DNA of 64,000 bases from Candidatus Spongiihabitans sp. (GCA_965237725.1 OZ250151.1:3497283-3561282), one strand, 5' to 3'. Shown: positions 2,049 to 63,600, counted from the first letter of the stretch. The notes: a model not told the origin generated them from the letters alone. Translations and numbers: made by a program.

Positions 2049-2546
2049 TTGAATTGGAAATCTGATTTCAAATTCAACTACGATTGGAAAAACATGTATA
2101 AAATTATTCAAACCCCAGACATTGAAATACGCGACACTAAAACAAAAAAAGGTAGAGGCGTATACGCTTGTCGGGATTTTAAAAATAATGAAATTATCGA
2201 AATCTCTCCTTACATCGTATTAGAGGATCACTTCAGTTTAATACCTGATTGCCTACAGGAAATTGTGTATAACGGCAGCGGATTTAAGAAACTATCTCGC
2301 AAGGCTGAAAAAGAGGGCAAGCAGGTGTTAGCTATAGTATTGGGCTATGGCAGTATGTACAACCACGGAAATCCTGCCAATGTCAGCGCAAAACCAAATC
2401 CTAAAACCAGAATTATGGAATACAAATCGTTGCGGAAAATTACTAAGGGAACTGAGCTTTTGATTAACTACGATGCACTGTGGACGGGGGTTAGTAAGGG
2501 AAATAAATGGATTGCCCAACGAAAATTAAAATATATTAAGCCCTAA
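2049..2546 (+). CDS. SET-domain protein (putative protein-lysine methyltransferase)
   Basis: RGVYACRDFKNNEIIEISPYIVL matches the SET N-region. YNHGNPANV matches the NHSxxPN motif. GTELLINYD matches the ELxxDY motif. The track start is TTG at 2049; the ATG at 2094 is an alternative. The gene is visibly more A/T-rich than its neighbours. Confidence 0.7.
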   Translation: MNWKSDFKFNYDWKNMYKIIQTPDIEIRDTKTKKGRGVYACRDFKNNEIIEISPYIVLEDHFSLIPDCLQEIVYNGSGFKKLSRKAEKEGKQVLAIVLGYGSMYNHGNPANVSAKPNPKTRIMEYKSLRKITKGTELLINYDALWTGVSKGNKWIAQRKLKYIKP

Positions 2547-2647
2547 AATCTGTTGCTCATTAGCGAAATTCCGAGTTAAAATTAATCGTGTCGAAGGAAT
2601 AAACCTATTATTTAACCTTACTTTCGCTGATTCGCGAGGATGAATTA

Positions 2648-2854
2648 ATGCCCAAAATCACTAAAAACCAAATTGCACGCCGCAAAGCGCTTAAAACAAT
2701 GGCAATCGGTGGAGCCGCAGCGACTACTGCCAAGGAGCTTCCCGAACGCTGGGGAAAACCCGTAATTGATGGCGTCCTGTTACCCGCCCATGCGAAAATG
2801 AGTGGAAAAGGAAAAGGAAAAGGGAAAGGAGAACAACCAGAAGAAGGAAGTTAG
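2648..2854 (+). CDS. small exported peptide with a Tat-like leader and a (GK)n core
   Basis: 68-aa ORF with a GAGGA Shine-Dalgarno about 8 nt upstream. Contains RRKALK plus a hydrophobic stretch, then LPERWGKPVIDGVLLPAHA, then the tail KMSGKGKGKGKGEQPEEGS. The leader block is paralogous to the N-terminus of the 38278..39027 protein. Confidence 0.6.
   Translation: MPKITKNQIARRKALKTMAIGGAAATTAKELPERWGKPVIDGVLLPAHAKMSGKGKGKGKGEQPEEGS
2804..2830 (+). repeat. hexanucleotide tandem repeat (GGAAAA-like) encoding GKGKGKGKG
   Basis: The DNA reads gga aaa gga aaa gga aaa ggg aaa gga in frame with the 2648..2854 ORF. Confidence 0.9.
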
Positions 2855-34445: not shown

Positions 34446-36068
34446 ATGAACACAATTGCCACAACAGCAGAAAAAATAGAACCAACCAAAATTACATCGG
34501 AAAATGAAATCTGGTGTATGACAACGACAATCGCGGAACTTGAAAGCGAAGGGATGTTAATGGTGCGGATTGAGGGCAAACAAATCGCTCTGTTTAAAAC
34601 AAAGGAAGGTGTTCGAGCCTGTGATAATCGATGTCCCCACGAGGGCTTTCCACTTTCTCAGGGAAGTCTTTCAGATAGCTGTACGTTGACCTGTAACTGG
34701 CACAACTGGAAATTTAATCTCGACACTGGGGATAATCTTTATGGCGGTGACCGGTTGCGCACCTATCCAGTCGAATTGCGTGGAAATGAAATCTGGGTAG
34801 ATATCAGCGATCCGCCTTATGATGAGCGTTATAAATCCATCGTCAATAGTTTGCGTGATGCATTCGAAGATCATGCCTATGATCGCATCGGCCGGGAAAT
34901 TGCACGATTGTTCAAAATTGGTGCGGATCCTCTGGATTCTCTGCGGCTCGCTATTGACTGGTCCTGGCAGCGCATGGAGTTTGGCTGGACCCATGCTTAT
35001 GCGGGAATGATGGACTGGTTAACCCTGTACGACGAGACCGACGACAAAGAGCTTAAGTTAGTCTGTTTAATGGAAAGCGTTGGCCACACGTCTTTTGACG
35101 TACTTCGAGAACCCGAATTTCCCTATACCAAGCGGACCGAGAGTTACGACCAGTCTGGATTTCTTGCGGCAATCGAAGCAGAAGACGAGGACAGCGCGGT
35201 TGCGATGATCCGCGGCGGATTAAAAGATGGTTTGGGTTTTAATGAGTTTGAATTTGGTTTCAGCCATGGGGCTCTAGCTCACTATAATGGTTTTGGTCAT
35301 TCGCTGATTTACGTTTCCAAGGCGGGTGGTTTGATTGAACGTCTCGGAAGTCAGGTTGCAGCGCCATTGTTACTGTCATTGGTGCGGGAACTGATTTATT
35401 CGCCCAGAGAAAATAAAATCCCCGAGTTCAGGCATTATGATACGGCGTTGCAGAAATGGGGTAATCATGACGGCACTGAACCAGATAAAGCGCTCTGGTT
35501 TAAGTTGGGTATAAATAAGGCCCTGGACGCTACGGTAAGTTGCAGTGGAGCGCCTCCAGAGTCAATTTACAGCGAACTGCTGCTGGCAAATGCAGTGAAT
35601 ATGCTCAGATTCGATCTTTCCCAACAGCAGAAAGTACATGTCAGCATTTCGGGTAATGTAGGCTGGCTGGACTTTACCCATGGCCTGACTTTTGCCAATG
35701 CAGTTAGAAAGCAATGCACGCGTTTTCCTGAACTATGGCCCAATGGACTATTACAAATGGCCTGTTTCAGTGGCCGCAATGCTGCATTTACAACAGCTAA
35801 AAACGATTTGGATCAATGGAAAATAGACCATACAAATGGAGAATTCGATAAATTAATTCAGGGCTTGTTCGATCACGGACAGGATGAATATATCGTTTCG
35901 GTACATTTGCTGAAAACTGCATTGGCGGTGCGGGAAGAAATTCAGGCATTGGATTTCGATGATGAAATTCTTGGCGCTACACTCAACCGATTTTTTAACT
36001 CTCCGTTAAAACGCAAACAGGCGCAGCGGACGGCCTATCAGTCTTTACAATTTGTTTCCAAAGAATAA
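34446..36068 (+). CDS. Rieske [2Fe-2S] domain protein with a ~400-aa uncharacterised C-terminal region
   Basis: Rieske ligand motifs CPHEGFPL (CxH) and CNWHNWKF (CxxH) lie near the N-terminus. I do not recognise the remainder. Confidence 0.75.
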   Translation: MNTIATTAEKIEPTKITSENEIWCMTTTIAELESEGMLMVRIEGKQIALFKTKEGVRACDNRCPHEGFPLSQGSLSDSCTLTCNWHNWKFNLDTGDNLYGGDRLRTYPVELRGNEIWVDISDPPYDERYKSIVNSLRDAFEDHAYDRIGREIARLFKIGADPLDSLRLAIDWSWQRMEFGWTHAYAGMMDWLTLYDETDDKELKLVCLMESVGHTSFDVLREPEFPYTKRTESYDQSGFLAAIEAEDEDSAVAMIRGGLKDGLGFNEFEFGFSHGALAHYNGFGHSLIYVSKAGGLIERLGSQVAAPLLLSLVRELIYSPRENKIPEFRHYDTALQKWGNHDGTEPDKALWFKLGINKALDATVSCSGAPPESIYSELLLANAVNMLRFDLSQQQKVHVSISGNVGWLDFTHGLTFANAVRKQCTRFPELWPNGLLQMACFSGRNAAFTTAKNDLDQWKIDHTNGEFDKLIQGLFDHGQDEYIVSVHLLKTALAVREEIQALDFDDEILGATLNRFFNSPLKRKQAQRTAYQSLQFVSKE

Positions 36069-36088: not shown

Positions 36089-37117
36089 TCAAACGATATC
36101 CGTGTTCAATAAACTGGCATCCCAGTTGTCTGGGTCGGTTAAATCAACGCCATTGATATTTTGAAAACTTAATCTTTGGGTATTGAAATTAGTTAGCAAA
36201 TAGGGGCGCTGGGCTGTTTCTATTTCGATGGATACTGCAAATTGGTTTTCCGTCAAAAGTTCAAGTAGGGATGCTGGGATTGCAACCGAGGATATTGCGA
36301 TTGGATTGTGTCTTATAGCTTTAACAATATATTCAACCACTGCGGCGTAAGTTTCATCTGTATCTGCGCTCAGTTGCAGAATACATATCGTATTGGAAGT
36401 TCGATTTCTTCCCAGAATAGCGTAACCACATAATTCCGAATTATCAGCATAAATTACCCGATACTCGCAGCCCGGATTCAATAGACGCCACTTAAAAAAT
36501 TCAGCAGTTTTATATGTGGTTGCAGGGTAAGGGTCGGATTGAACTTGACAATAATGAGCTAACTCATTTTCGCGTAATGGGCCGCTGGATAGTCTAATCC
36601 CCAAAGCTTTAGAAGCTGCACTGGGCAATTGATCCAGATCACTAAAAGGTAAGCCTTGTTTCATCGCACCTCCAGACCCAGATTTGTAATATATATCCCA
36701 CGGTCCAACGGTGAGCCAGTTACGCCGTTGGGATAATCCTGCGACAACAGGCCCAGGGCTGAGATTTATTCCAAAGTCGAATTTTTGCTCCAAAGCCAAT
36801 TCGAACAAGGCATCTGTCATTTTACTCACCAGGCCTCTGCCTTCGTAAGATTCCCGTACCACGGTGCCACCAAAACAGGCCAGCTTTTTTGGTTCTAAAG
36901 ACGCGCCAATTTTCCACTCCAGACCATAGGCATTACGAGTACCCACTACCTCTCCACTGTCTATGGCAACAACAACGAGGGGTTGATCAGAAACCGGATT
37001 TGCAATGTGCTTCCATTTAAATATCTGAGCAAGGCGCTGGGGCGTGGCGCTGGATAGGCGTTGGTATAAGATCAGAAGATCTTCCAGGTAACGAATATGA
37101 AATGGAACAATTTCCAT
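36089..37117 (-). CDS. GNAT-fold acyltransferase-like protein (two-lobed)
   Basis: VVRESYEGRGLVSKM fits the GNAT acyl-CoA-binding R/Q-x-x-G-x-G/A motif. It is the last gene of the 39027->36089 minus-strand cluster. Confidence 0.55.
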   Translation of the reverse strand: MEIVPFHIRYLEDLLILYQRLSSATPQRLAQIFKWKHIANPVSDQPLVVVAIDSGEVVGTRNAYGLEWKIGASLEPKKLACFGGTVVRESYEGRGLVSKMTDALFELALEQKFDFGINLSPGPVVAGLSQRRNWLTVGPWDIYYKSGSGGAMKQGLPFSDLDQLPSAASKALGIRLSSGPLRENELAHYCQVQSDPYPATTYKTAEFFKWRLLNPGCEYRVIYADNSELCGYAILGRNRTSNTICILQLSADTDETYAAVVEYIVKAIRHNPIAISSVAIPASLLELLTENQFAVSIEIETAQRPYLLTNFNTQRLSFQNINGVDLTDPDNWDASLLNTDIV

Positions 37118-37154
37118 AATGTCAGAAATTAACGTTTACGCTATGGTTTAGCAG

Positions 37155-38207
37155 CTATATTTTTAGTCGTTGGAAACCACCCCAATTTTCCAGTGGTTCA
37201 TAATTTTCTGATTCCAGTTGCAGGTCTTTTATAATCAGGCCAATCATGTCTTCGATAAGTTGGTATTTTAGGTTGCCCGAATATTCTGGCGTCATCGCCG
37301 GGCCACGATTACATTCGATAAGCCAGGGCTGCATGTTGCTATCGATCATCATATCCAGACCAATCAATTCGAAGCACATACGTGGGTCACCTAATAACTT
37401 ATTTGTTGTTGCCTGTAATGGTTCAGTGATGGAATTGAGGGTATCTATAAGGATTTTCTCAATTTGCGCCCATGTATTGGATCCGGCGGTTGTTTTTGAC
37501 GCATAGGATTGCCAATATTCAATGGTGCGACAATGAATCTCGGCGTCATAGTCCGGGTGGGTGGATTGGACCCCTGAATTGGTGTTGTACATGTAGTCAC
37601 TGACCAAAGGATCGTGTCCCGGTTCATAGGGAATGACACACAAGTCGGTACAACCTTCATTATATAAATAGGCGGTTAATGGATTGGTATTGACGATCAG
37701 AAGATACAGCCGAAGATTGTATTTACAGCCGTCAATCAAATGAACGTCATCGAGATATTCCTGTACCAGCCATTCCCCCGAGATCGGCATTTCTGACACA
37801 TCATTAACCCGTCTGATATATCTTCCCCAGGATCCACCTCTTGGTTTTATTAGCCATTGACCGCAGTCAAATATTTTCGAGATATCATCCTTTTGATCGG
37901 GCCAAAGATAGCTTTTTGGGAAATATCGCGGAAAATTGTCTTTATCGTGATTATTAGAATAGGCGTTGGAGAGATTTTGAAACAGCGACCACTTGTTGGT
38001 CAGTACAGATATGCCAGGAATATGGTTAATTCTCCGACCGGTAGGGATATGTTTGTAAAAATCCCGGGGTGGTTCTTTGTCGTTGTACCAGAGAATATCC
38101 CAATCGGGTGTTTCAACCTGAATTACGCCGGCGTTTTTGAAACCCTGGATGACAACCTGTGCGGATGGGTCGGATACAGGGCCGACAAATCCAAACTTTG
38201 TTGCCAT
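37155..38207 (-). CDS. tubulin-tyrosine-ligase (TTL/TTLL)-family ATP-grasp enzyme
   Basis: Four serial TTL-family blocks are present: RINHIPGISVLTNKWSLFQNL, WLIKPRGGSWGRYI, VQEYLDDVHLIDGCKYNLRLYLLIV and CFELIGLDMMIDSNMQPWLIECNRGPAM. Confidence 0.8.
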   Translation of the reverse strand: MATKFGFVGPVSDPSAQVVIQGFKNAGVIQVETPDWDILWYNDKEPPRDFYKHIPTGRRINHIPGISVLTNKWSLFQNLSNAYSNNHDKDNFPRYFPKSYLWPDQKDDISKIFDCGQWLIKPRGGSWGRYIRRVNDVSEMPISGEWLVQEYLDDVHLIDGCKYNLRLYLLIVNTNPLTAYLYNEGCTDLCVIPYEPGHDPLVSDYMYNTNSGVQSTHPDYDAEIHCRTIEYWQSYASKTTAGSNTWAQIEKILIDTLNSITEPLQATTNKLLGDPRMCFELIGLDMMIDSNMQPWLIECNRGPAMTPEYSGNLKYQLIEDMIGLIIKDLQLESENYEPLENWGGFQRLKI

Positions 38208-38277
38208 GAAGTTTGTTAGTTAGAAACAAATTCGCATGTTTTGGGTTGTACCAAAAGTAGATCAAATTGTGATCGGG

Positions 38278-39027
38278 CTAGGGGGTCACTTTTACTATAA
38301 TTTTTGAGCCCATAGAATCGCCGCAGCCGGGAACACAGATAAATTGATCTGTCGGCACAAGGTTGGCGGTAAACTTTATACTTTTGCAAGATTTATTTCC
38401 GTTGTCCTCATTAAAAATATCGAATGCTCCCGTTACGGTCATTGCATCAGGGTCATACTCCATACTGAATAGGTCCACCCTCTCCTGATCATCTTCAATG
38501 TCAATACTCTCATCAATTCTCAAAATCGATGTGTCCACGAGTTTATTGTCTGGCAGGAGGGTAGAGCTTGTCTGGCCAGTGCATTCCTGAAACCCACCGG
38601 TAGTACTAAAACAGATATCGACGTCACCATTTTGGAGGATTCGAAATATGACAATAATGTTTATTTTATTATCCTGGCAGGCAGACTCACCCACATCATT
38701 GTGATAGCTGTCCAGTGCTGAGGCGGTTGGGATGACACTTTCCAGTGTAGCTGGTATAAGCCCTTCCAGCAGGGTATTGCCTTCCCACCATTTGGAATTA
38801 TCAGCCATATCGATAGCTTCAGTTGTAAATATGCCTAGAGGTGACATCATGGCATGAGCAGGCAGAAATACCGTATCAACAACAGGTTTTCGCCAGGTTT
38901 CTGGCAAAGCCTGGCTGCCCGCCACTAATCCGCCAGAAGCAACCAGCGACTTAAGCGCTGTACGTCGGTGGATATTTGGTGTGGTATTGGATTTCCCGAA
39001 TATTTTGTCTTTATCGATATTTCTCAT
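38278..39027 (-). CDS. exported hypothetical protein with the Tat-like leader shared with the 2648..2854 peptide
   Basis: HRRTALKSLVASGGLVAGSQALPETWRKPVVDTVFLPAHAMMS aligns ungapped with the small peptide's leader. The mature part is about 190 aa with 6 Cys and no family I recognise. Confidence 0.65.
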   Translation of the reverse strand: MRNIDKDKIFGKSNTTPNIHRRTALKSLVASGGLVAGSQALPETWRKPVVDTVFLPAHAMMSPLGIFTTEAIDMADNSKWWEGNTLLEGLIPATLESVIPTASALDSYHNDVGESACQDNKINIIVIFRILQNGDVDICFSTTGGFQECTGQTSSTLLPDNKLVDTSILRIDESIDIEDDQERVDLFSMEYDPDAMTVTGAFDIFNEDNGNKSCKSIKFTANLVPTDQFICVPGCGDSMGSKIIVKVTP

Positions 39028-56194: not shown

Positions 56195-56405
56195 GGTACA
56201 CTTCACTTTGGTATTACCTGCGGTGTTCGAGTTGTTCTCCGAATCCCTTAGAACCTAATATTTATACTCGGGTGCTGTTATGAATGACCGGCGTGTATGA
56301 CCCCAGCCTGGCTGGTGCGAATCCCAAAGTTATTCTTTGTACCCACTTGGACCTCCTTGGTTCAAGGTAAAGTGAGCATACGGCACTCGCGGGTAATGCT
56401 TTTTA
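56195..56405 (+). ncRNA. ssrS: 6S RNA (SsrS)
   Basis: A non-coding gap lies in the conserved zapA-ssrS-ygfA position. The 3' part, ccttggttcaagg...cggcactcgcgggtaatgc, resembles E. coli 6S (CCUUGAACCAAGGGUUCAAGG...GCCUGCGGCGGCAUC). The 5' gtattacctgcg can pair with the 3' cgcgggtaatgc. An internal hairpin CCAGCC/GGCTGG is present. A T-run follows the closing helix. The ends are approximate. Confidence 0.7.
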
Positions 56406-57622: not shown

Positions 57623-59092
57623 ATGGATTTTTCACTGCTCAAAATCTACGGTATTACATTTCATGGCGGTGGAATTATATCTACTGTGGGCTTTACTTTT
57701 CGATCTCAGTGGCTATTAGGACTTTTTCGTCGCCTTTGCTTCGTCACAGTCTTAGTCTATTCGTCTTTCCCAACTTTTCTCCATGCCCAAACCCAAGACT
57801 ACATCGAATATCAATACGATGGTGCGGGGAATATTATCGGCATCATTACTAAGAATAATGGAGGACAACCTGATGTAACTAGCCTGGTCCCCGACCATGT
57901 TAATCGGGATAAAACAATTACGATTAGCGCGGCAGGCGTGAATCTTTATAAAGCACAAGTTGCCACGGATCACGACGGCATCACTATATTAAATACTGAG
58001 ACGATTTCATCGGAATTGGTTAAATTTACAATTTCATCAAAATTTGATGCGGAAATTGGCTTTGCGAATTTCACCTTTACCACAAGATTAGGGAGGGATA
58101 TCGAATCAATTTTTGTCGCAATAAGACTTCCGGTCATTTCAACAGACCCAAATCCGATTGCACTTGTGGCAAGTGGACCAAGCCGTCCTGTATCGCTCAC
58201 ATTTGATTTGCCATATCCAACAGATCAGGAGTTTAACCTGGCGGCCTCAAATACATCATTAGCAAAAACCAATGTTGGCAGTGTGACATTAGAGGCAGGC
58301 TCAACAGAAGCTTCATTTTTCATGGCGGGGTTAGAAAAGGGAGTTACAACCCTCGAAGTATCCCAGCCTGCGGCATTCTCTGGCGTATCCATCCCGGTTT
58401 TTGTCTCTGATCCTTTTGATTTGCCAAATGGAAATACCGAATTTACCAGTAAATCTGTGGGAGTTACGGTTAGCCGTTTTGATCTTTCAACAGGGGAATC
58501 TGAATTTGTTTTATCCACAGTGGGTGTTCTAAGAAATGCCAATGAATTGATCGTTGGGGATAAATTTGTTCATTCAAATTCAGTGGGTATTTCGATGCCC
58601 GCCCCAATTAACGAGCTACCTAGCGGAAACGCATACCTAAATACCGAACCTTTGGGTGTGTTAAAAAATTCAGAAAACATGTTACCTGAGGGTGAAAGTT
58701 ATTCTTACAGCGATTTGCTTGGCATAAATATTAATACAGAATTTCTCCTTCCCAATGGGGACGCATCATTGTTGTCTGATGCATTGGGCGTGACCAATCC
58801 TCCCTACATCAATAATCGATCTCATGGAAATTTTAGTCAAGGTTCCTCCCTAATATTAATATTAACGGGTGTAGGTCTCGATGTTTCGAGGACAGTAATA
58901 TTTGAACCAACAACAGGAATAACACAATCGTCGGTATTTGTCGTCAATCCAGCTGGTACTCAAATTGAAGTGTTCCTGGACATCAGCCCAACGGCGTCTT
59001 TAGGCCCGCGACAAATAAAAATAAACACCTTAACTGGAGCAGTTCCATTTATCCAATCTACTAACGAAATTTTTCAAACAATTAGTAATTAA
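57623..59092 (+). CDS. secreted repeat protein (single YD motif, Ig/IPT-like domains, 6x ~22-aa repeat)
   Basis: Signal-like LLGLFRRLCFVTVLVYSSFPTFLHA followed by YIEYQYDGAGNIIGI (YD-repeat motif). The start codon is uncertain; an internal GTG is possible. Confidence 0.6.
   Translation: MDFSLLKIYGITFHGGGIISTVGFTFRSQWLLGLFRRLCFVTVLVYSSFPTFLHAQTQDYIEYQYDGAGNIIGIITKNNGGQPDVTSLVPDHVNRDKTITISAAGVNLYKAQVATDHDGITILNTETISSELVKFTISSKFDAEIGFANFTFTTRLGRDIESIFVAIRLPVISTDPNPIALVASGPSRPVSLTFDLPYPTDQEFNLAASNTSLAKTNVGSVTLEAGSTEASFFMAGLEKGVTTLEVSQPAAFSGVSIPVFVSDPFDLPNGNTEFTSKSVGVTVSRFDLSTGESEFVLSTVGVLRNANELIVGDKFVHSNSVGISMPAPINELPSGNAYLNTEPLGVLKNSENMLPEGESYSYSDLLGININTEFLLPNGDASLLSDALGVTNPPYINNRSHGNFSQGSSLILILTGVGLDVSRTVIFEPTTGITQSSVFVVNPAGTQIEVFLDISPTASLGPRQIKINTLTGAVPFIQSTNEIFQTISN
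58418..58798 (+). repeat. six degenerate tandem ~21-23-aa protein repeats (L-P/S-x-G ... S..(L/V)G(V/I))
   Basis: Repeat starts fall at aa 267, 288, 309, 332, 354 and 376 of the 489-aa protein: LPNGNTEF..VGV, LSTGESEF..VGV, LIVGDKF..VGI, LPSGNAY..LGV, LPEGESY..LGI and LPNGDAS..LGV. Confidence 0.6.
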
Positions 59093-59141
59093 ACATATGA
59101 AACCGAATTCAATATTACCCAAACCGAACAGGAGTACCGTC

Positions 59142-60596
59142 ATGAAACACTTGTATATCTATTCAACGTCACTAATTTTATTGATACTAACATTTACAAA
59201 CTCTCTTGCTTTCGAAAGCGGTAGTAATGGGTCCGATGGCGTTCTAAATGTGACTGTTGATACTGTCTTACAACTTCCGGCGAGCGGCGTATTTAATTTT
59301 ACGGATGTGACAGTGGCCGAAGGTGCGACGTTGAGATTTAGAAAAAATTCATCTAATACGCCGGTTTATCTTTTAGCTAGTGGCAATATTACAATCGAAG
59401 GTACGATCCAGGTTAATGGAGAAACCTCAGTCAACACTGATGACGACGACCGGGTCGGTGACGGACAACCAGGTTCAGGTGGCGCGGGTGGATTTGACGG
59501 GGGACGAGGCGGATACATTGGTATTGATGCTGATAACGATGGTGCTCCGGGTCAGGGGCCAGGAGGAGGGAACCCTGGAACACTCGCAAAATCTTGTGCA
59601 TTTGAATTTTCCGGAACAGGTGGTGGTGGTGGTGGGTATTTTGCCGCCGGTTTGAAAGGCGACTCTGGGGGAGCTGGCGGACAAGCTTATGGGGTTAGTT
59701 ACTTAATCCCGTTGATTGGCGGATCAGGAGGTGGGGGCGCTTCTGGTCCTGGAAATAGCGGTCGCAGTAACACCTTTGGTTCTGGAGGCGGTGGAGGCGG
59801 TGGCGCAATGTTAATTGCGTCATCAGGATTAATCTCAATTACAGGGACAATCACGGCAAATGGTGGTGGTTCTGGGTCAGTTGTAAAACCTTCGGGTGGA
59901 AGTTGCGCGACTGGAGGTAGCGGTGGTGGTGGCAGTGGTGGTGCAATTCGAATTATTGCCAGCAAGCTTACGGGTACTGGAACATTGAGGGCAATTGGCG
60001 GTGTCGCAGCGAGAGATGCACGTGAGAAAGGTGGACGCGGATCACATGGTCGAATTCGACTTGAAGCCGATGAGTTTCAATGGTGGGTAGCAACAACTCC
60101 TTCATTTAGTTCATCCGCACCAAACCCGGTATTTGTAGCGGATCTCCCTGGAATCGTAATCAGCTCTGTTGGCGGCATTAATGCGCCCGGTTCACCAACT
60201 GGCTTTAACGATATTATTCTACCTGACAATACACCTAACCCAGTTACAGTGGAATTCACAACAACAGATATACCCACAGGAGGTGTAATCGAATTAACTG
60301 CGACTCCCGTTACAGGATCTAGCGTTACAGTCAATAGTTCCGCAATTGGTGGTTCAGAAGCAAGCGGGTCGGCATCAGCCTTAATCGATTTACCCAACGG
60401 CCCCAGTACGTTGATTGCCACAACGACATTTCTGGTTATCGCCGATCTTGGAAAAGATTATTCAAAATATGTCATGGGAGAAGAAGTGAAAGAAGTGAAG
60501 ATTGCTTCTGTTGCAGGTCAGGGCTCGGTTACGACTTTTATTACAACCCAGGGTAATGAATACCCTTGGCATACGGGGCAGCTTTCAAATAACTAA
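59142..60596 (+). CDS. secreted glycine-rich, probable beta-solenoid protein
   Basis: Signal peptide MKHLYIYSTSLILLILTFTNSLA, with AGGAG upstream of the ATG at 59142. Poly-Gly runs alternate with I-x-I-x-G-x-I strands (ISITGTITANGGGSG, AIRIIASKLTGTGTLRAIGG, GRIRLEAD). Confidence 0.6.
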   Translation: MKHLYIYSTSLILLILTFTNSLAFESGSNGSDGVLNVTVDTVLQLPASGVFNFTDVTVAEGATLRFRKNSSNTPVYLLASGNITIEGTIQVNGETSVNTDDDDRVGDGQPGSGGAGGFDGGRGGYIGIDADNDGAPGQGPGGGNPGTLAKSCAFEFSGTGGGGGGYFAAGLKGDSGGAGGQAYGVSYLIPLIGGSGGGGASGPGNSGRSNTFGSGGGGGGGAMLIASSGLISITGTITANGGGSGSVVKPSGGSCATGGSGGGGSGGAIRIIASKLTGTGTLRAIGGVAARDAREKGGRGSHGRIRLEADEFQWWVATTPSFSSSAPNPVFVADLPGIVISSVGGINAPGSPTGFNDIILPDNTPNPVTVEFTTTDIPTGGVIELTATPVTGSSVTVNSSAIGGSEASGSASALIDLPNGPSTLIATTTFLVIADLGKDYSKYVMGEEVKEVKIASVAGQGSVTTFITTQGNEYPWHTGQLSNN

Positions 60597-60649: not shown

Positions 60650-63600
60650 ATGAAACCAAATTGGAAGTATTGCCGAATATGGGTGGCTTCAGTTTTTCGA
60701 GTATCTTCTCGAAGAAAAAATTCGAATGGTCGACTCTCCCATCCAATTGAACAAGTAGGAAAAACGACCTTAGGTGGGGCAATCTTCTTAGTTTTCATGG
60801 GAATGGGAGCATTAATCTGGCAGTCCCACGTTACTGGGCAAGTTTCCCAACCCATTAATTCCGCGCCCTGGGTTGGTGAAATAACGGGAATTTTTAAACT
60901 AGACACTGATGGCCAACTAGTCAATCATTTCAAGCTTGGTGAAGAAATTGAAGACAGAGACATAGATTGTTCACCGCTGGAAGAATGGCAAGAGAAAGTG
61001 AAGTATCGGAAAGGGGATTTTGTACAACATAATGGCAATGCCTGGCGGGCCAATAAAAAAACCAAGAAGGAACCAAAGGCGGGCGGAAAGGGGTCAAAAG
61101 GTCCCAAGGGATCGAAAGGATCCAGGGGATCGAAAGGTTCCAAAGGTTCCAAGGGTTCCAAGGGTTCTAAAGGTTCCAAAGGTTCCAAAGGTTCCAAGGG
61201 TTCTAAAGGTTCGAAAGGTAATGGCTCGAAAGGCAAAGGTTCGAACTGGGCGTTACTAGGCCCTTGTGCATCCGACTCAAACGATAAGTCAACTGGTGTG
61301 ATTGGGCTAATTGACGACGAATCCATATTGTGGGCCTACCTTCACGATCACCGTTTATATCAAATTAATACCGATAGCGAACAAATTACCGAAATTATCT
61401 TCCCCGATCCACCCCAGGACGGTAATTTCGATTGTGCTGATTTAAATCTCTGGGATGCTTCAGAAAAATATAAGAAAAACGATTTTATCGAATTCATCGG
61501 ACATGCCTGGGAAGCCAAAAAATCAACCTCTAAAGAACCCGATTTGTCATCGGATAAATATTGGAAAGATTTAGGAGAGTGCATAGCGGATGTTAACTAT
61601 GCGGGACACCTCATAACCGATGGACAAGTGCTGTGGCTAGCACGAGGGAGGCAAATTATTCGCTATGAGAATGCAATAGCGGAATCGTTTGAAACGATAA
61701 ACCCAGTCAATGCCATCACCTGGGATGAAATCAGTCAGCAATTGTGGGTTGCATCCGGTACAACTTTCGAGCGCAGAATTGCGAATGGAACTATTGTCGA
61801 TGTAGATTCCTTGACTAACGGCCCAGTAACCGCCATGGGTGTGGATCTTCGCAATGGTTATTTATGGCTTAGCACAAATTCAGGAGTGTTATCACAATAC
61901 GATGCGAATAGTACTTTCATTGGTAATCTGATTTTGCCAATGGGTGTGGTCGAGCATATTATTTCTGATAATCAGGGTGGGTTGTGGGTAGCGGACGCGA
62001 GCAAGGTTATCAACCTGGACGAATTCGGAAACATTGTGCAAATTCTCGAACCCGTACTGGGCGGTAGTGCCATTAGAGATATTACAGTCGCAGCAGACGG
62101 TAGTTTGTGGATAGCCACTGCAGATCAACTTTGGCGCTACGATGACGTCCAAGGTCTAACCCAAGAATGGGTAGCCCCGAGTGCAAACCCGATTATCGTA
62201 AATGTTCTTTCACAACAAGTTAGCCATAACAATCCGCCAGAAATTACTTCGGACCCTATTACCGACGCAATCCTTAACGACAATTACAGCTACGATGTTA
62301 TAGCGACAGATGCAGATGGAGATGATCTGGAGTTTCAATTAACCGCCGCACCTGTTGGAATGACCATCGATGAATTCACAGGTTCAATCTTATGGCTTGC
62401 GGACAGCATAGGCGACTTTGATGTAACTGTTGAAGTATTCGATACCCGAGGTGGGGTTGATAGTCAAAGTTTTACGGTTAGCGTCATCGATCCAGATACC
62501 ACGCCGCCAGTCATTACCCTGACCAGCCCCCAGAACGGACTCCTGACCAATAATTCAGTACTCTCCATCGTGGGATTCATAGACGAGATCGCCACGTTAT
62601 CGCTAAATGGTTCGCCCCTTTCCCAAAATCCAGATTTGTCGTTTGGCGCTACCGTTAGTTTGGTTGAAGGGATCAATAATTTTGTGCTCAATGGGGTAGA
62701 CCCTTCTGGAAATTCCAGTGATGTTTTATTCAGCGTTACATTAGACAGCATCGCGCCACAAATTGTGGTCAGCTCACCCAGCGATGGCGATTTAACTAAT
62801 GAGGAAAATCAATCCGTTGAAGGTAGCTTATCGGAATCCGCTGTACTCACCATCAATGATCAGTCGGTTACAGTTCATCCATCATTAGATTTTACAAGCG
62901 CCCTTACCCTAATCGAAGGCAACAACACCATAACCCTTGTTGCTACTGATCCCGTTGGCAATCAATCCACCACAAACCTATCCGTTACCTTAGATAGCAT
63001 TGCACCAGAAATCACTAACTTAGTCCCAATATCGGGTTCGTTTACCAATATTCCAAACCAAACTATTTCTGGTCAACTAAGCGAACCCGGCAGCGTAACC
63101 GTTAATGGTAATGCAGCGACGGTAAACAAAGATGACTCATTTGTGTTTACCCCTTTTGCGTTAACCGAAGGGGCCAATCTGATCGATATCACAGCAACGG
63201 ACTCAGCGGGAAATTTTACTGATGCTCAGATTAACATTACCCTAGATACAGTAGCGCCGGTTATACAACTCGATGCGCCAAACAACAACGTTCAATTTAA
63301 TAATCCAGATGTTCTGTTTGAAGGCACTGTTAGCGAGCTTGTCAATCTAACTATTAATGGTGATGCCATAGCCTTAGAAAATGATAATTCATTTAGCGCA
63401 ACCCTGACCCTGTTAGAAGGGGATAACAGTGGGGACATTGTGGCCACCGATTTCGCGGGAAACCCAACGACGATTACCCGTCAAATCAATATCGATTCGA
63501 TCCCCCCAGCAGCCATTGATCAGGGCTTGGTCAATCGGGGTAATCCCACTAATGAAATTGTTATGGTCAGTGGTTTGCCCGGGGCCGCAGAACCCGGAAG

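Follow-up and report, generated by a model that had tools for sequence, protein, structure and literature searches.

A minimal SET-domain gene paired with a Tat-like leader mini-protein gene in Candidatus Spongiihabitans, and a wider family of similar leaders

Small single-domain SET proteins are the closest described relatives of a gene found in a 64,000-nucleotide stretch of Candidatus Spongiihabitans sp. (GCA_965237725.1, OZ250151.1:3497283-3561282; hereafter the window), where a SET-domain lysine methyltransferase gene (2094..2546, + strand) is followed by a gene for a 68-aa mini-protein (2648..2854, +). The minimal SETs, such as vSET of PBCV-1, Set7 of S. pombe, PFL0690c of Plasmodium, Go1-SET and the SETs of Bacillus and Priestia, have the same size (approx. 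120-170 aa) and fold as the window protein and share with it the motifs GxG, YNH..PxN and ELxxNY, and neither they nor the window protein possess pre-SET or post-SET zinc clusters; the best matches of the latter in the PDB (5h6z, 3kma/1n3j and 4rz0) are among them. SET genes of free-living bacteria and archaea are already on record, with Methanosarcina Go1-SET methylating H4K5 in vitro, in the context SGRGK, and having MC1-alpha as an endogenous substrate (PMC3980110). The closest relative with a solved structure, Set7 of S. pombe, methylates H3K37 according to Shen et al. 2019, as cited in PMC9145779. A dedicated small peptide partner is unreported for minimal SETs, whereas the sub-clade of the window protein has a candidate for one, and differs from them furthermore in an 8-aa insertion in the SET-I region and in the loss of the near-invariant Trp61 and Tyr99.

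As for the mini-protein, its closest counterparts are precursors of peptides that are ribosomally synthesised and then modified post-translationally (RiPPs) and signals of the twin-arginine translocation (Tat) pathway. RiPP precursors with NHLP or Nif11 leaders are similar to it in the conserved leader of approx. 45-49 aa, the unrelated C-terminal parts and the tailoring-type enzyme encoded next to them. A conserved leader and a variable core next to a tailoring-type enzyme were seen here too, the SET gene lying 64-120 nt upstream in three of three loci, and the PqqD, HPrK-like and NTP_transf_5 proteins typical of RiPP clusters occur at some loci of the leader family described below. On the other hand, the leader of the window mini-protein is Tat-like with an AxA site and not of the GG type known from RiPPs, and the 'cores' of most leader-family members are proteins of 100-250 aa, whereas RiPP cores are peptides. 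No leader-recognition element, leader protease or dedicated exporter was found near the SET cassette, the neighbours of which in the window encode an epimerase, TauD, HutD and YtoQ. To our knowledge, no SET-dependent RiPP is known, and searching the literature for SET together with RiPP or Tat returned nothing relevant. Tat signals represented by TIGR01409 and TIGR02811 resemble the mini-protein leader in RRxxLK, in the weak Ala/Gly-rich hydrophobic (h-) region and in the AxA site, but ordinary ones are devoid of the 20-residue block LPExWxKPVVDxVxLP, which in the leader family is placed between the h-region and the cleavage site.

The novelty of the locus is the conserved pairing of SET and mini-peptide, the small SET itself being of a common type. 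We propose, with a probability of roughly 45% and on grounds of sequence and gene context, that positions 2094-2854 constitute a two-gene modification cassette, the SET protein of which would methylate the mini-peptide in the cytoplasm before its export.

The SET gene, the mini-protein gene and their conserved pairing

The ORF (open reading frame) at 2049-2546 (+), with the motifs YNHGNPANV and ELLINYD, is present in the window as the sequence-only reading had described it. Its reading frame is correct; the length of 165 aa, which presumes the alternative TTG start at 2049 (+), is not retained, as ATG 2094 is the most likely start because the public protein P0001 has 150 aa and the alignments of homologues begin there. 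The claim of a stand-alone SET protein with intact core motifs was borne out by Pfam SET (PF00856), which matched residues 35-141 with profile positions 1-104 of 105 at 36.1 bits (E 9.4e-9; gathering cut-off 22.4 bits). The motifs GRG, YNHGNPAN and ELLINY, the last including the catalytic Tyr, were located at residues 20-22, 89-96 and 121-126, correspondingly, and the protein retains each of the eight residues (G22, G84, G86, Y89, N90, E121, N125 and Y126) that do not vary among 91 aligned homologues. The AlphaFold2 model computed with this alignment as input had a pLDDT (predicted local distance difference test) of 90.7 and a pTM (predicted template modelling score) of 0.81. The top PDB matches of the model in Foldseek were Set7 (5h6z, probability 1.00, template modelling (TM) score 0.61/0.73), vSET (3kma, TM 0.60/0.84) and PFL0690c (4rz0); 260 PDB chains were at E<=1e-3, and all of the 50 listed were SET or PR domains. 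The SET profile ranked PDB sequences in the same order, with S. pombe Set7 at E 2e-18, and identity to the structurally solved relatives was 22-32%. The SET-family identity of the gene is secure, and its product is probably a minimal, cytoplasmic lysine N-methyltransferase, with activity predicted from motifs and fold; the cytoplasmic location follows from the lack of an own signal peptide, as judged from the sequence, and from the requirement for S-adenosylmethionine (SAM).

Stand-alone SET proteins are not unusual in bacteria. When 1.84 billion cluster representatives (50% identity) were searched exhaustively with HMMER, 4,178 had E<=1e-3 and 1,153 had E<=1e-10, and a word-indexed search yielded more than 5,291 SET clusters of 90% identity at E<=1e-8, mostly single-domain proteins of 140-150 aa. 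Where small SETs had a named source, it was Burkholderiales, Sorangium or another of the Pseudomonadota, with the annotation 'SET domain-containing protein', and a plasmid search revealed distant small SETs on plasmids of Priestia and Bacillus. With thousands of clusters found, the statement that SET proteins are sporadic in bacteria was overstated, and the depiction of most of them as effectors agrees neither with the thousands of environmental members nor with the published review (PMC3980110).

The mini-protein gene (68 codons plus stop; public annotation P0004) is preceded by a ribosome-binding site GAGGA (2636..2640, +), recognised by sequence inspection 7 nt before its ATG. It is the co-directional neighbour of the SET gene, with a C-terminal end SGKGKGKGKGEQPEEGS, and had been taken for a (GK)n peptide. 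The (GK)4 run does exist, but it is not the main feature, the conserved part being a Tat-like N-terminal leader of approx. 49 aa (residues 1-49; 2648..2794, +), assigned by matches to leader hidden Markov models (HMMs) and a near-cut-off NCBIfam score. The leader reads, in order, ARRKALK, TMAIGGAAATTA and LPAHA and combines a Tat-like motif with an h-region of weak hydrophobicity and an AxA site: RRKALK, the twin-arginine motif (2678-2695, +), is followed by the Ala/Gly-rich h-region, the conserved block LPERWGKPVID (2738-2770, +) and, at the end of the leader, LPAHA with the putative AxA-type signal-peptidase site (2783-2794, +). TAT_signal_seq of NCBIfam (TIGR01409) gave 16.0 bits for the window mini-protein and 12.9-16.1 bits for six leader relatives, all under the cut-off of 16.7. 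The remaining residues 50-68 (2795..2851, +) form a variable Lys-rich tail, KMSGKGKGKGKGEQPEEGS, with 5 Lys in 19 residues, which is the candidate methylation substrate or mature peptide. A word-indexed search with the 68-aa peptide found no match except itself, and counts in promoter and terminator scans were equal to those expected from shuffled sequence. It should be added that the leader hexapeptide RWGKPV (2747-2764, +) has the same sequence as the core at the C-terminus of alpha-MSH/ACTH, almost certainly by chance, and that papers on alpha-MSH were all that the literature returned for it.

Whether SET gene and small ORF occur together in other genomes had been put forward as a test of the adjacent peptide as a substrate. 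The outcome was positive for P0002 (contig L001) and P0005 (contig L072), and the substrate idea, although still a matter of prediction from sequence, survives it. The SET sub-clade comprises only three members among approx. 15 billion proteins, namely P0001, P0002 (56% identity) and P0005 (47% identity); past this trio the SET profile score drops from 229 over 203 to <=183 bits, and only 4 representatives in the HMMER search had E<=1e-30. In all three, the mini-ORF lies downstream of the SET gene on the same strand, at a distance of 101 nt (P0001), 64 nt (P0002) and 120 nt (P0005). That of L001, an ENA contig, has 63 aa, MAKNGKTLKSRRKTLKAMAIGSAGVTAATAKSLPERWGKPVVDSVVLPGHAKMTKKMAVKKTT, and that of L072, ...GRRKAIKKMAIGGSAAAAAGNLPDRWGKPFVDTVL, is ended by the contig edge. 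Identity between the SET-linked leaders that are complete, i.e. those of the window and L001, is 67%; the tails of these two are Lys-rich, the one of L001, KMTKKMAVKKTT, having 5 Lys in 12 residues, yet unrelated in sequence. The host GC (guanine plus cytosine) content of the three loci is 45, 59 and 61%. Flanking genes differ between the window (epimerase and HutD) and L001 (an ORF with no family match and a convergent downstream ORF), the L072 contig being too short to include any. More distant SETs that were examined had no mini-ORF beside them, a scan of the genome collection with the SET alignment recovered only distant SETs (25-35% identity), none with a mini-ORF, and neither the leader nor the SET-linked pattern was detected in viral contigs, nor the leader in plasmids. 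Other small ORFs next to distant SETs, e.g. a 58-aa ORF in L078, were considered and proved unrelated to the mini-ORF.

Among the three loci, the ratio of nonsynonymous to synonymous differences per site (pN/pS) amounted to 0.23-0.25 for the leader (pS 0.58-0.79) and to 0.31-0.54 for the SET gene, with synonymous sites near saturation (pS 0.58-0.91). Low pN/pS at near-saturated pS indicates that the SET gene and the mini-ORF are both real and constrained, i.e. under purifying selection. The mini-ORF as a truncated pseudogene was ruled out, given the complete copies of 63 and 68 aa and the purifying selection on the leader.

Both partners exhibit changes specific to the sub-clade, as compared with 88 other small SETs and with other leaders. 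The SET-I region of the window protein (residues 59-79; 2268..2330, +) has an 8-residue insertion and a Trp61-to-Gly replacement: the segment between residues 58 and 79 measures 21 aa in the trio vs a median of 13 (range 8-17) in the 88 others, and position 61 is G in the trio vs W in 87/88. Position 99 is A or V in the trio and Y in 85/88 of the other small SETs, and Cys53 is conserved in the trio. In SET enzymes, SET-I forms the lining of the peptide groove. On the side of the partner, RWGKP is common to all three SET-linked peptides, other leaders having S/T/V/R/H/A/I in place of the Gly, and K-M-S/T stands right after AHA in both SET-linked peptides that reach this position, which in other leaders is taken by Q, A, E, L, R or M.

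The leader family and its gene neighbours

Narrower automatic patterns derived from the 3-sequence leader alignment had no metagenome matches; the family was recovered by a hand-made degenerate DNA pattern for PExWxKPV[VI]D, which was searched in metagenomes of the Joint Genome Institute (JGI). Of the 59 JGI stretches obtained, 31 contain true leaders, in approx. 38 ORFs (E 1e-20 to 2e-8). The consensus of 39 leader sequences is RRKLLKxxAAGxGAxxAGKxLPExWxKPVVDSVxLPAHAQT; the mature regions behind it, 80-250 aa in length, are unrelated to one another and variously Cys-rich, Gly-rich or Pro/Thr/Ser-rich. RR is present in 35/36 leaders covering that position (RC in L029), and the 20-residue block is kept throughout contigs ranging from 40 to 66% GC. 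No Pfam family was identified in ten leader proteins, except for a C-terminal Peptidase_S74 in that of L030; the leader itself was unmatched by Pfam and NCBIfam models above cut-off, and literature searches for the leader motif strings found no description of it.

The SET-linked peptides are the only members of this family nearly without a mature part (19 and 12 residues), and it is here that another role of the mini-protein, as a carrier or regulator of the SET enzyme, has to be weighed. Its tail might sit in the SET groove as a pseudo-substrate, its leader might export the folded SET protein by hitch-hiking, or the tail might keep the enzyme inactive. The mini-protein is almost a signal peptide alone, reminiscent of TIGR02811 proteins ('formate dehydrogenase region TAT target'), to which the leaders have weak matches of 12-18 bits, below cut-off; the SET protein has no signal of its own, and hydrogenases and DMSO reductase are established cases in which a partner devoid of a signal hitch-hikes through Tat. 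However, SAM is unavailable outside the cytoplasm, export of a SET protein in this fashion has no known precedent, and the other leader proteins possess large mature domains and are cargo-like themselves. We therefore regard such a role as improbable.

A second leader-bearing protein (249 aa; 38278..39027, - strand) is encoded in the window itself, and was matched by leader profiles in hmmsearch at E 3.8e-12 (2-sequence profile, first approx. 48 residues) and 2.8e-22 (39-sequence profile); its mature part belongs to no Pfam or NCBIfam family. Directly downstream and co-directional are a tubulin-tyrosine-ligase (TTL)-family ATP-grasp gene (37155-38207, -; Pfam TTL, 148.7 bits) and then a GNAT-like gene for 342 aa (36089-37117, -; Pfam Acetyltransf_1, 28.5 bits), with gaps of 70 and 37 nt. 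This apparent operon (36089-39027, -) may represent a second module of a leader protein plus modifying enzymes. It is adjoined by a gene for a 540-aa Rieske-domain protein (34446-36068, +), in which a Frankia_peptide match of 18.9 bits (cut-off 48) is probably noise.

Among the metagenomic loci, leader genes have as neighbours Glyco_transf_7C in L020 (10230-13628, together with a PqqD-containing protein), L026 (1155-2631) and L033 (155-2369), Sulfotransfer_2 in L037 (1717-3503) and L042, HPrK-like and NTP_transf_5 in L063 (5450-8068) and JmjC_2 in L056 (740-3758). In L067 (1-5551, -), a GlcNAc-transferase (PF11397) is encoded upstream, and an O-FucT plus hydroxyproline-arabinosyltransferase (HPAT)-like protein downstream, of the leader gene, all co-directionally; the mature region of this leader protein is mucin-like and Pro/Thr/Ser-rich, and the locus places eukaryote-type O-glycosylation enzymes around an obvious candidate substrate. 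Several leader contigs encode two leader proteins in tandem. Overall, a protein-modifying enzyme is adjacent in approx. 12 of approx. 20 leader loci with informative flanks, the three SET loci being counted. As a control, the 25 commonest families among 48 neighbours of chance pattern matches from the same scan were inspected and comprised none of these enzymes. The tally is small and its entries are not independent, and the frequent presence of cytoplasmic protein-modifying enzymes next to the leader family is therefore suggestive.

Taken further, the RRxxLK...LPExWxKPVVDxVxLPAHA leader might define an unrecognised class of ribosomal peptides and proteins, on which enzymes encoded next to them, for the most part eukaryote-like, would act in the cytoplasm before export via Tat, with the block after the h-region as a docking or hold-back site; the enzymes would comprise SET, the TTL-type ligase, glycosyltransferases (beta4GalT-like, GlcNAc, O-Fuc and HPAT), sulfotransferases and the JmjC hydroxylase. 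We hold this generalisation to be possible but on balance doubtful. Should it be true, the SET cassette would be the first case of a SET-dependent, RiPP-like methyl-lysine peptide. For genome mining, the conserved leader offers a practical handle in any case.

Possible route of modification and export

In the proposed cassette, SAM-dependent methylation of the pre-peptide by the SET protein would take place in the cytoplasm, at one lysine or several, candidates being the lysines of the tail, K50 right after AHA, or K37 within the trio-specific RWGKP. Any modification must precede export, because the SET protein and TTL alike are without a signal peptide of their own and depend on a cofactor found in the cytoplasm; Tat accepts pre-modified cargo. 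The methylated pre-peptide would subsequently be exported, probably by Tat, and the leader would be cleaved at AHA|K to release a cationic methyl-lysine peptide of 12-19 residues. The cassette would belong to a larger family, hitherto undescribed, in which the same leader is attached to unrelated proteins near modifying enzymes. In histone H3, K37 is followed by Pro38, and H4K5 of Go1-SET and H3K37 of Set7 provide a precedent, by analogy, for minimal SETs acting on Gly-Lys or Lys-Pro contexts.

A number of points weigh against this proposal. Methylation, export and cleavage of the mini-peptide are predictions from gene context, and the pairing amounts to three instances, of which L072 is cut before the tail and has no visible flanks. 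The SET proteins of the window and of L001 are themselves basic (predicted pI, i.e. isoelectric point, 9.5-9.7), which is no obvious fit to a polycationic substrate. The tails are not conserved, that of L001 being devoid of a GK repeat, and may be unconstrained junk behind a functional leader. Tat dependence is likewise a prediction, with TIGR01409 scores below the cut-off, and the approx. 37 residues from RR to AHA make a long span for a signal peptide. Furthermore, SET genes were found beside none of the approx. 38 leader proteins from metagenomes, i.e. the leader does not require SET, and the tally of neighbours is a small, purely descriptive count that takes in related contigs.

Several of these points bear on the main rival explanation, according to which the pairing is conserved without an enzyme-substrate relation: the SET protein would target, e.g., a nucleoid-associated or ribosomal protein, and the mini-protein would be an independent secreted cationic peptide that has a transcription unit or ancestry in common with it. 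The lack of such a partner next to thousands of small SETs speaks in its favour, as do the unconserved tail sequences, the scarcity of SET neighbours among leader proteins and the fact that, where endogenous substrates are known for prokaryotic SETs, these proteins bind DNA (PMC3980110). It is less compatible with the presence of the pair in 3/3 members of the sub-clade, in hosts of 45-61% GC and amid unlike flanks at the two visible loci, with the sub-clade-specific changes on both partners, and with the remodelling of the substrate-binding SET-I in the paired SETs only. We consider a linkage of this kind rather unlikely, but a serious competitor to the methylation of the mini-peptide.

Endogenous substrates are known for almost none of the thousands of small prokaryotic SETs, and the cassette offers a directly testable candidate. 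If the mini-peptide is indeed methylated, lysine N-methylation by SET enzymes would join the chemistry of ribosomal peptide natural products, and a wider, leader-defined family would be indicated in which Tat-type export is linked with cytoplasmic modification of eukaryote-like kind (glycosylation, sulfation, ligation and hydroxylation), with a bearing on the question of how the modification systems of eukaryotes originated in bacteria.

Base composition, the surface protein and other observations

The SET gene is A/T-rich, as had been noticed from the sequence alone: its GC of 0.38 is the lowest of 55 window genes (mean 0.462, z=-3.0), and only 1.7% of 498-nt windows have GC as low. At third codon positions (GC3) it measures 0.391 (z=-1.6), and five other window genes are equal or lower. 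With GC3 just mildly low, the A/T-richness originates mostly from amino-acid composition, which is rich in Lys, Asn and Ile (20 Lys in 150 residues). The SET orthologue of L001 has a GC3 of 0.71, equal to that of its flanks. Horizontal acquisition deduced from composition was consequently rejected as weak, and the hint at it in the sequence-only reading is, in view of both GC3 results, weakly backed.

The same data are relevant to the idea that the SET gene is a recently acquired, eukaryote-derived effector targeting a host, of the RomA/LegAS4 or NUE type. Effectors such as RomA/LegAS4 (Legionella), NUE/cpnSET (Chlamydia) and BtSET have a catalytic SET domain in common with the window protein; they are larger, multidomain, secreted by type III or type IV secretion systems and act on host histones, whereas the window SET is minimal and has an endogenous candidate substrate. 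Apart from the lowest GC among the 55 genes, a weak profile match to LegAS4 (E 0.004, as compared with 2e-18 for Set7) points to such an origin. Against it, the 150-aa protein consists of the SET domain alone, with no ankyrin, nuclear localisation signal or secretion-signal extensions, its nearest relatives are the thousands of environmental prokaryotic SETs and not an effector clade, its GC3 is just 1.6 standard deviations low, and the neighbouring genes (TauD, HutD, YtoQ, AraC-type, MFS) fit a metabolically versatile free-living bacterium. An effector is in our opinion extremely improbable, and the combined depiction of a rare, horizontally acquired, effector-like SET found no support.

A run of 15 consecutive Gly-X-Lys/Arg triplets at 61082-61243, reported in the sequence-only reading, was confirmed. 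It is located near the N-terminus of an adhesin-like ORF (approx. 60650 to beyond 64000, +) of more than 1,100 aa, which extends past the window end and contains, besides this collagen-like (Gly-Ser-Lys)n stretch, many Ig-like or cadherin-like repeats. Methylation of this repeat by the SET protein, in analogy to lysine methylation of rickettsial OmpB, would draw on the Gly-Lys context, similar to that of the (GK)4 tail of the mini-protein, and on the repeat being real. The genes, however, are 58 kb apart and share no operon, nothing ties the surface protein to the SET gene, no co-occurrence was seen, with L001 and L072 too short to show any, and the rickettsial OmpB methyltransferases are not SET enzymes. 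We deem this substrate very improbable. Just upstream of the repeat adhesin, at 57623-60596 (+), lie neighbouring genes for two Gly-rich proteins (489 and 499 aa), which have the lowest GC3 in the window (0.34) and may constitute a compositionally distinct surface-protein island.

Some other small SETs occur in different gene contexts. In L082 (1-5216), a 737-aa kinase-like/TPR/PhyH protein is encoded behind a SET of the wider family, with a divergent HlyD-like gene and a Peptidase_C39 ATP-binding cassette (ABC) exporter on the opposite side; P0012 (888 aa) is a SET fused to a long C-terminal extension that by eye resembles this 737-aa protein. Both are hints that some small SETs belong to clusters of peptide modification and export. 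In L011 (4001-4677, +), a metagenome-assembled genome (MAG) of Woesearchaeota, a distant small SET precedes a 73-aa zinc-ribbon protein with a Lys-rich tail, KKGVSKRAAKKKKT, which may be another pair of a SET and a basic mini-protein, unrelated in sequence to the one described here. Finally, a 6S/SsrS RNA (Rfam RF00013) was identified in the window at 56212-56399 (+), with 65.9 bits vs a cut-off of 46.4.

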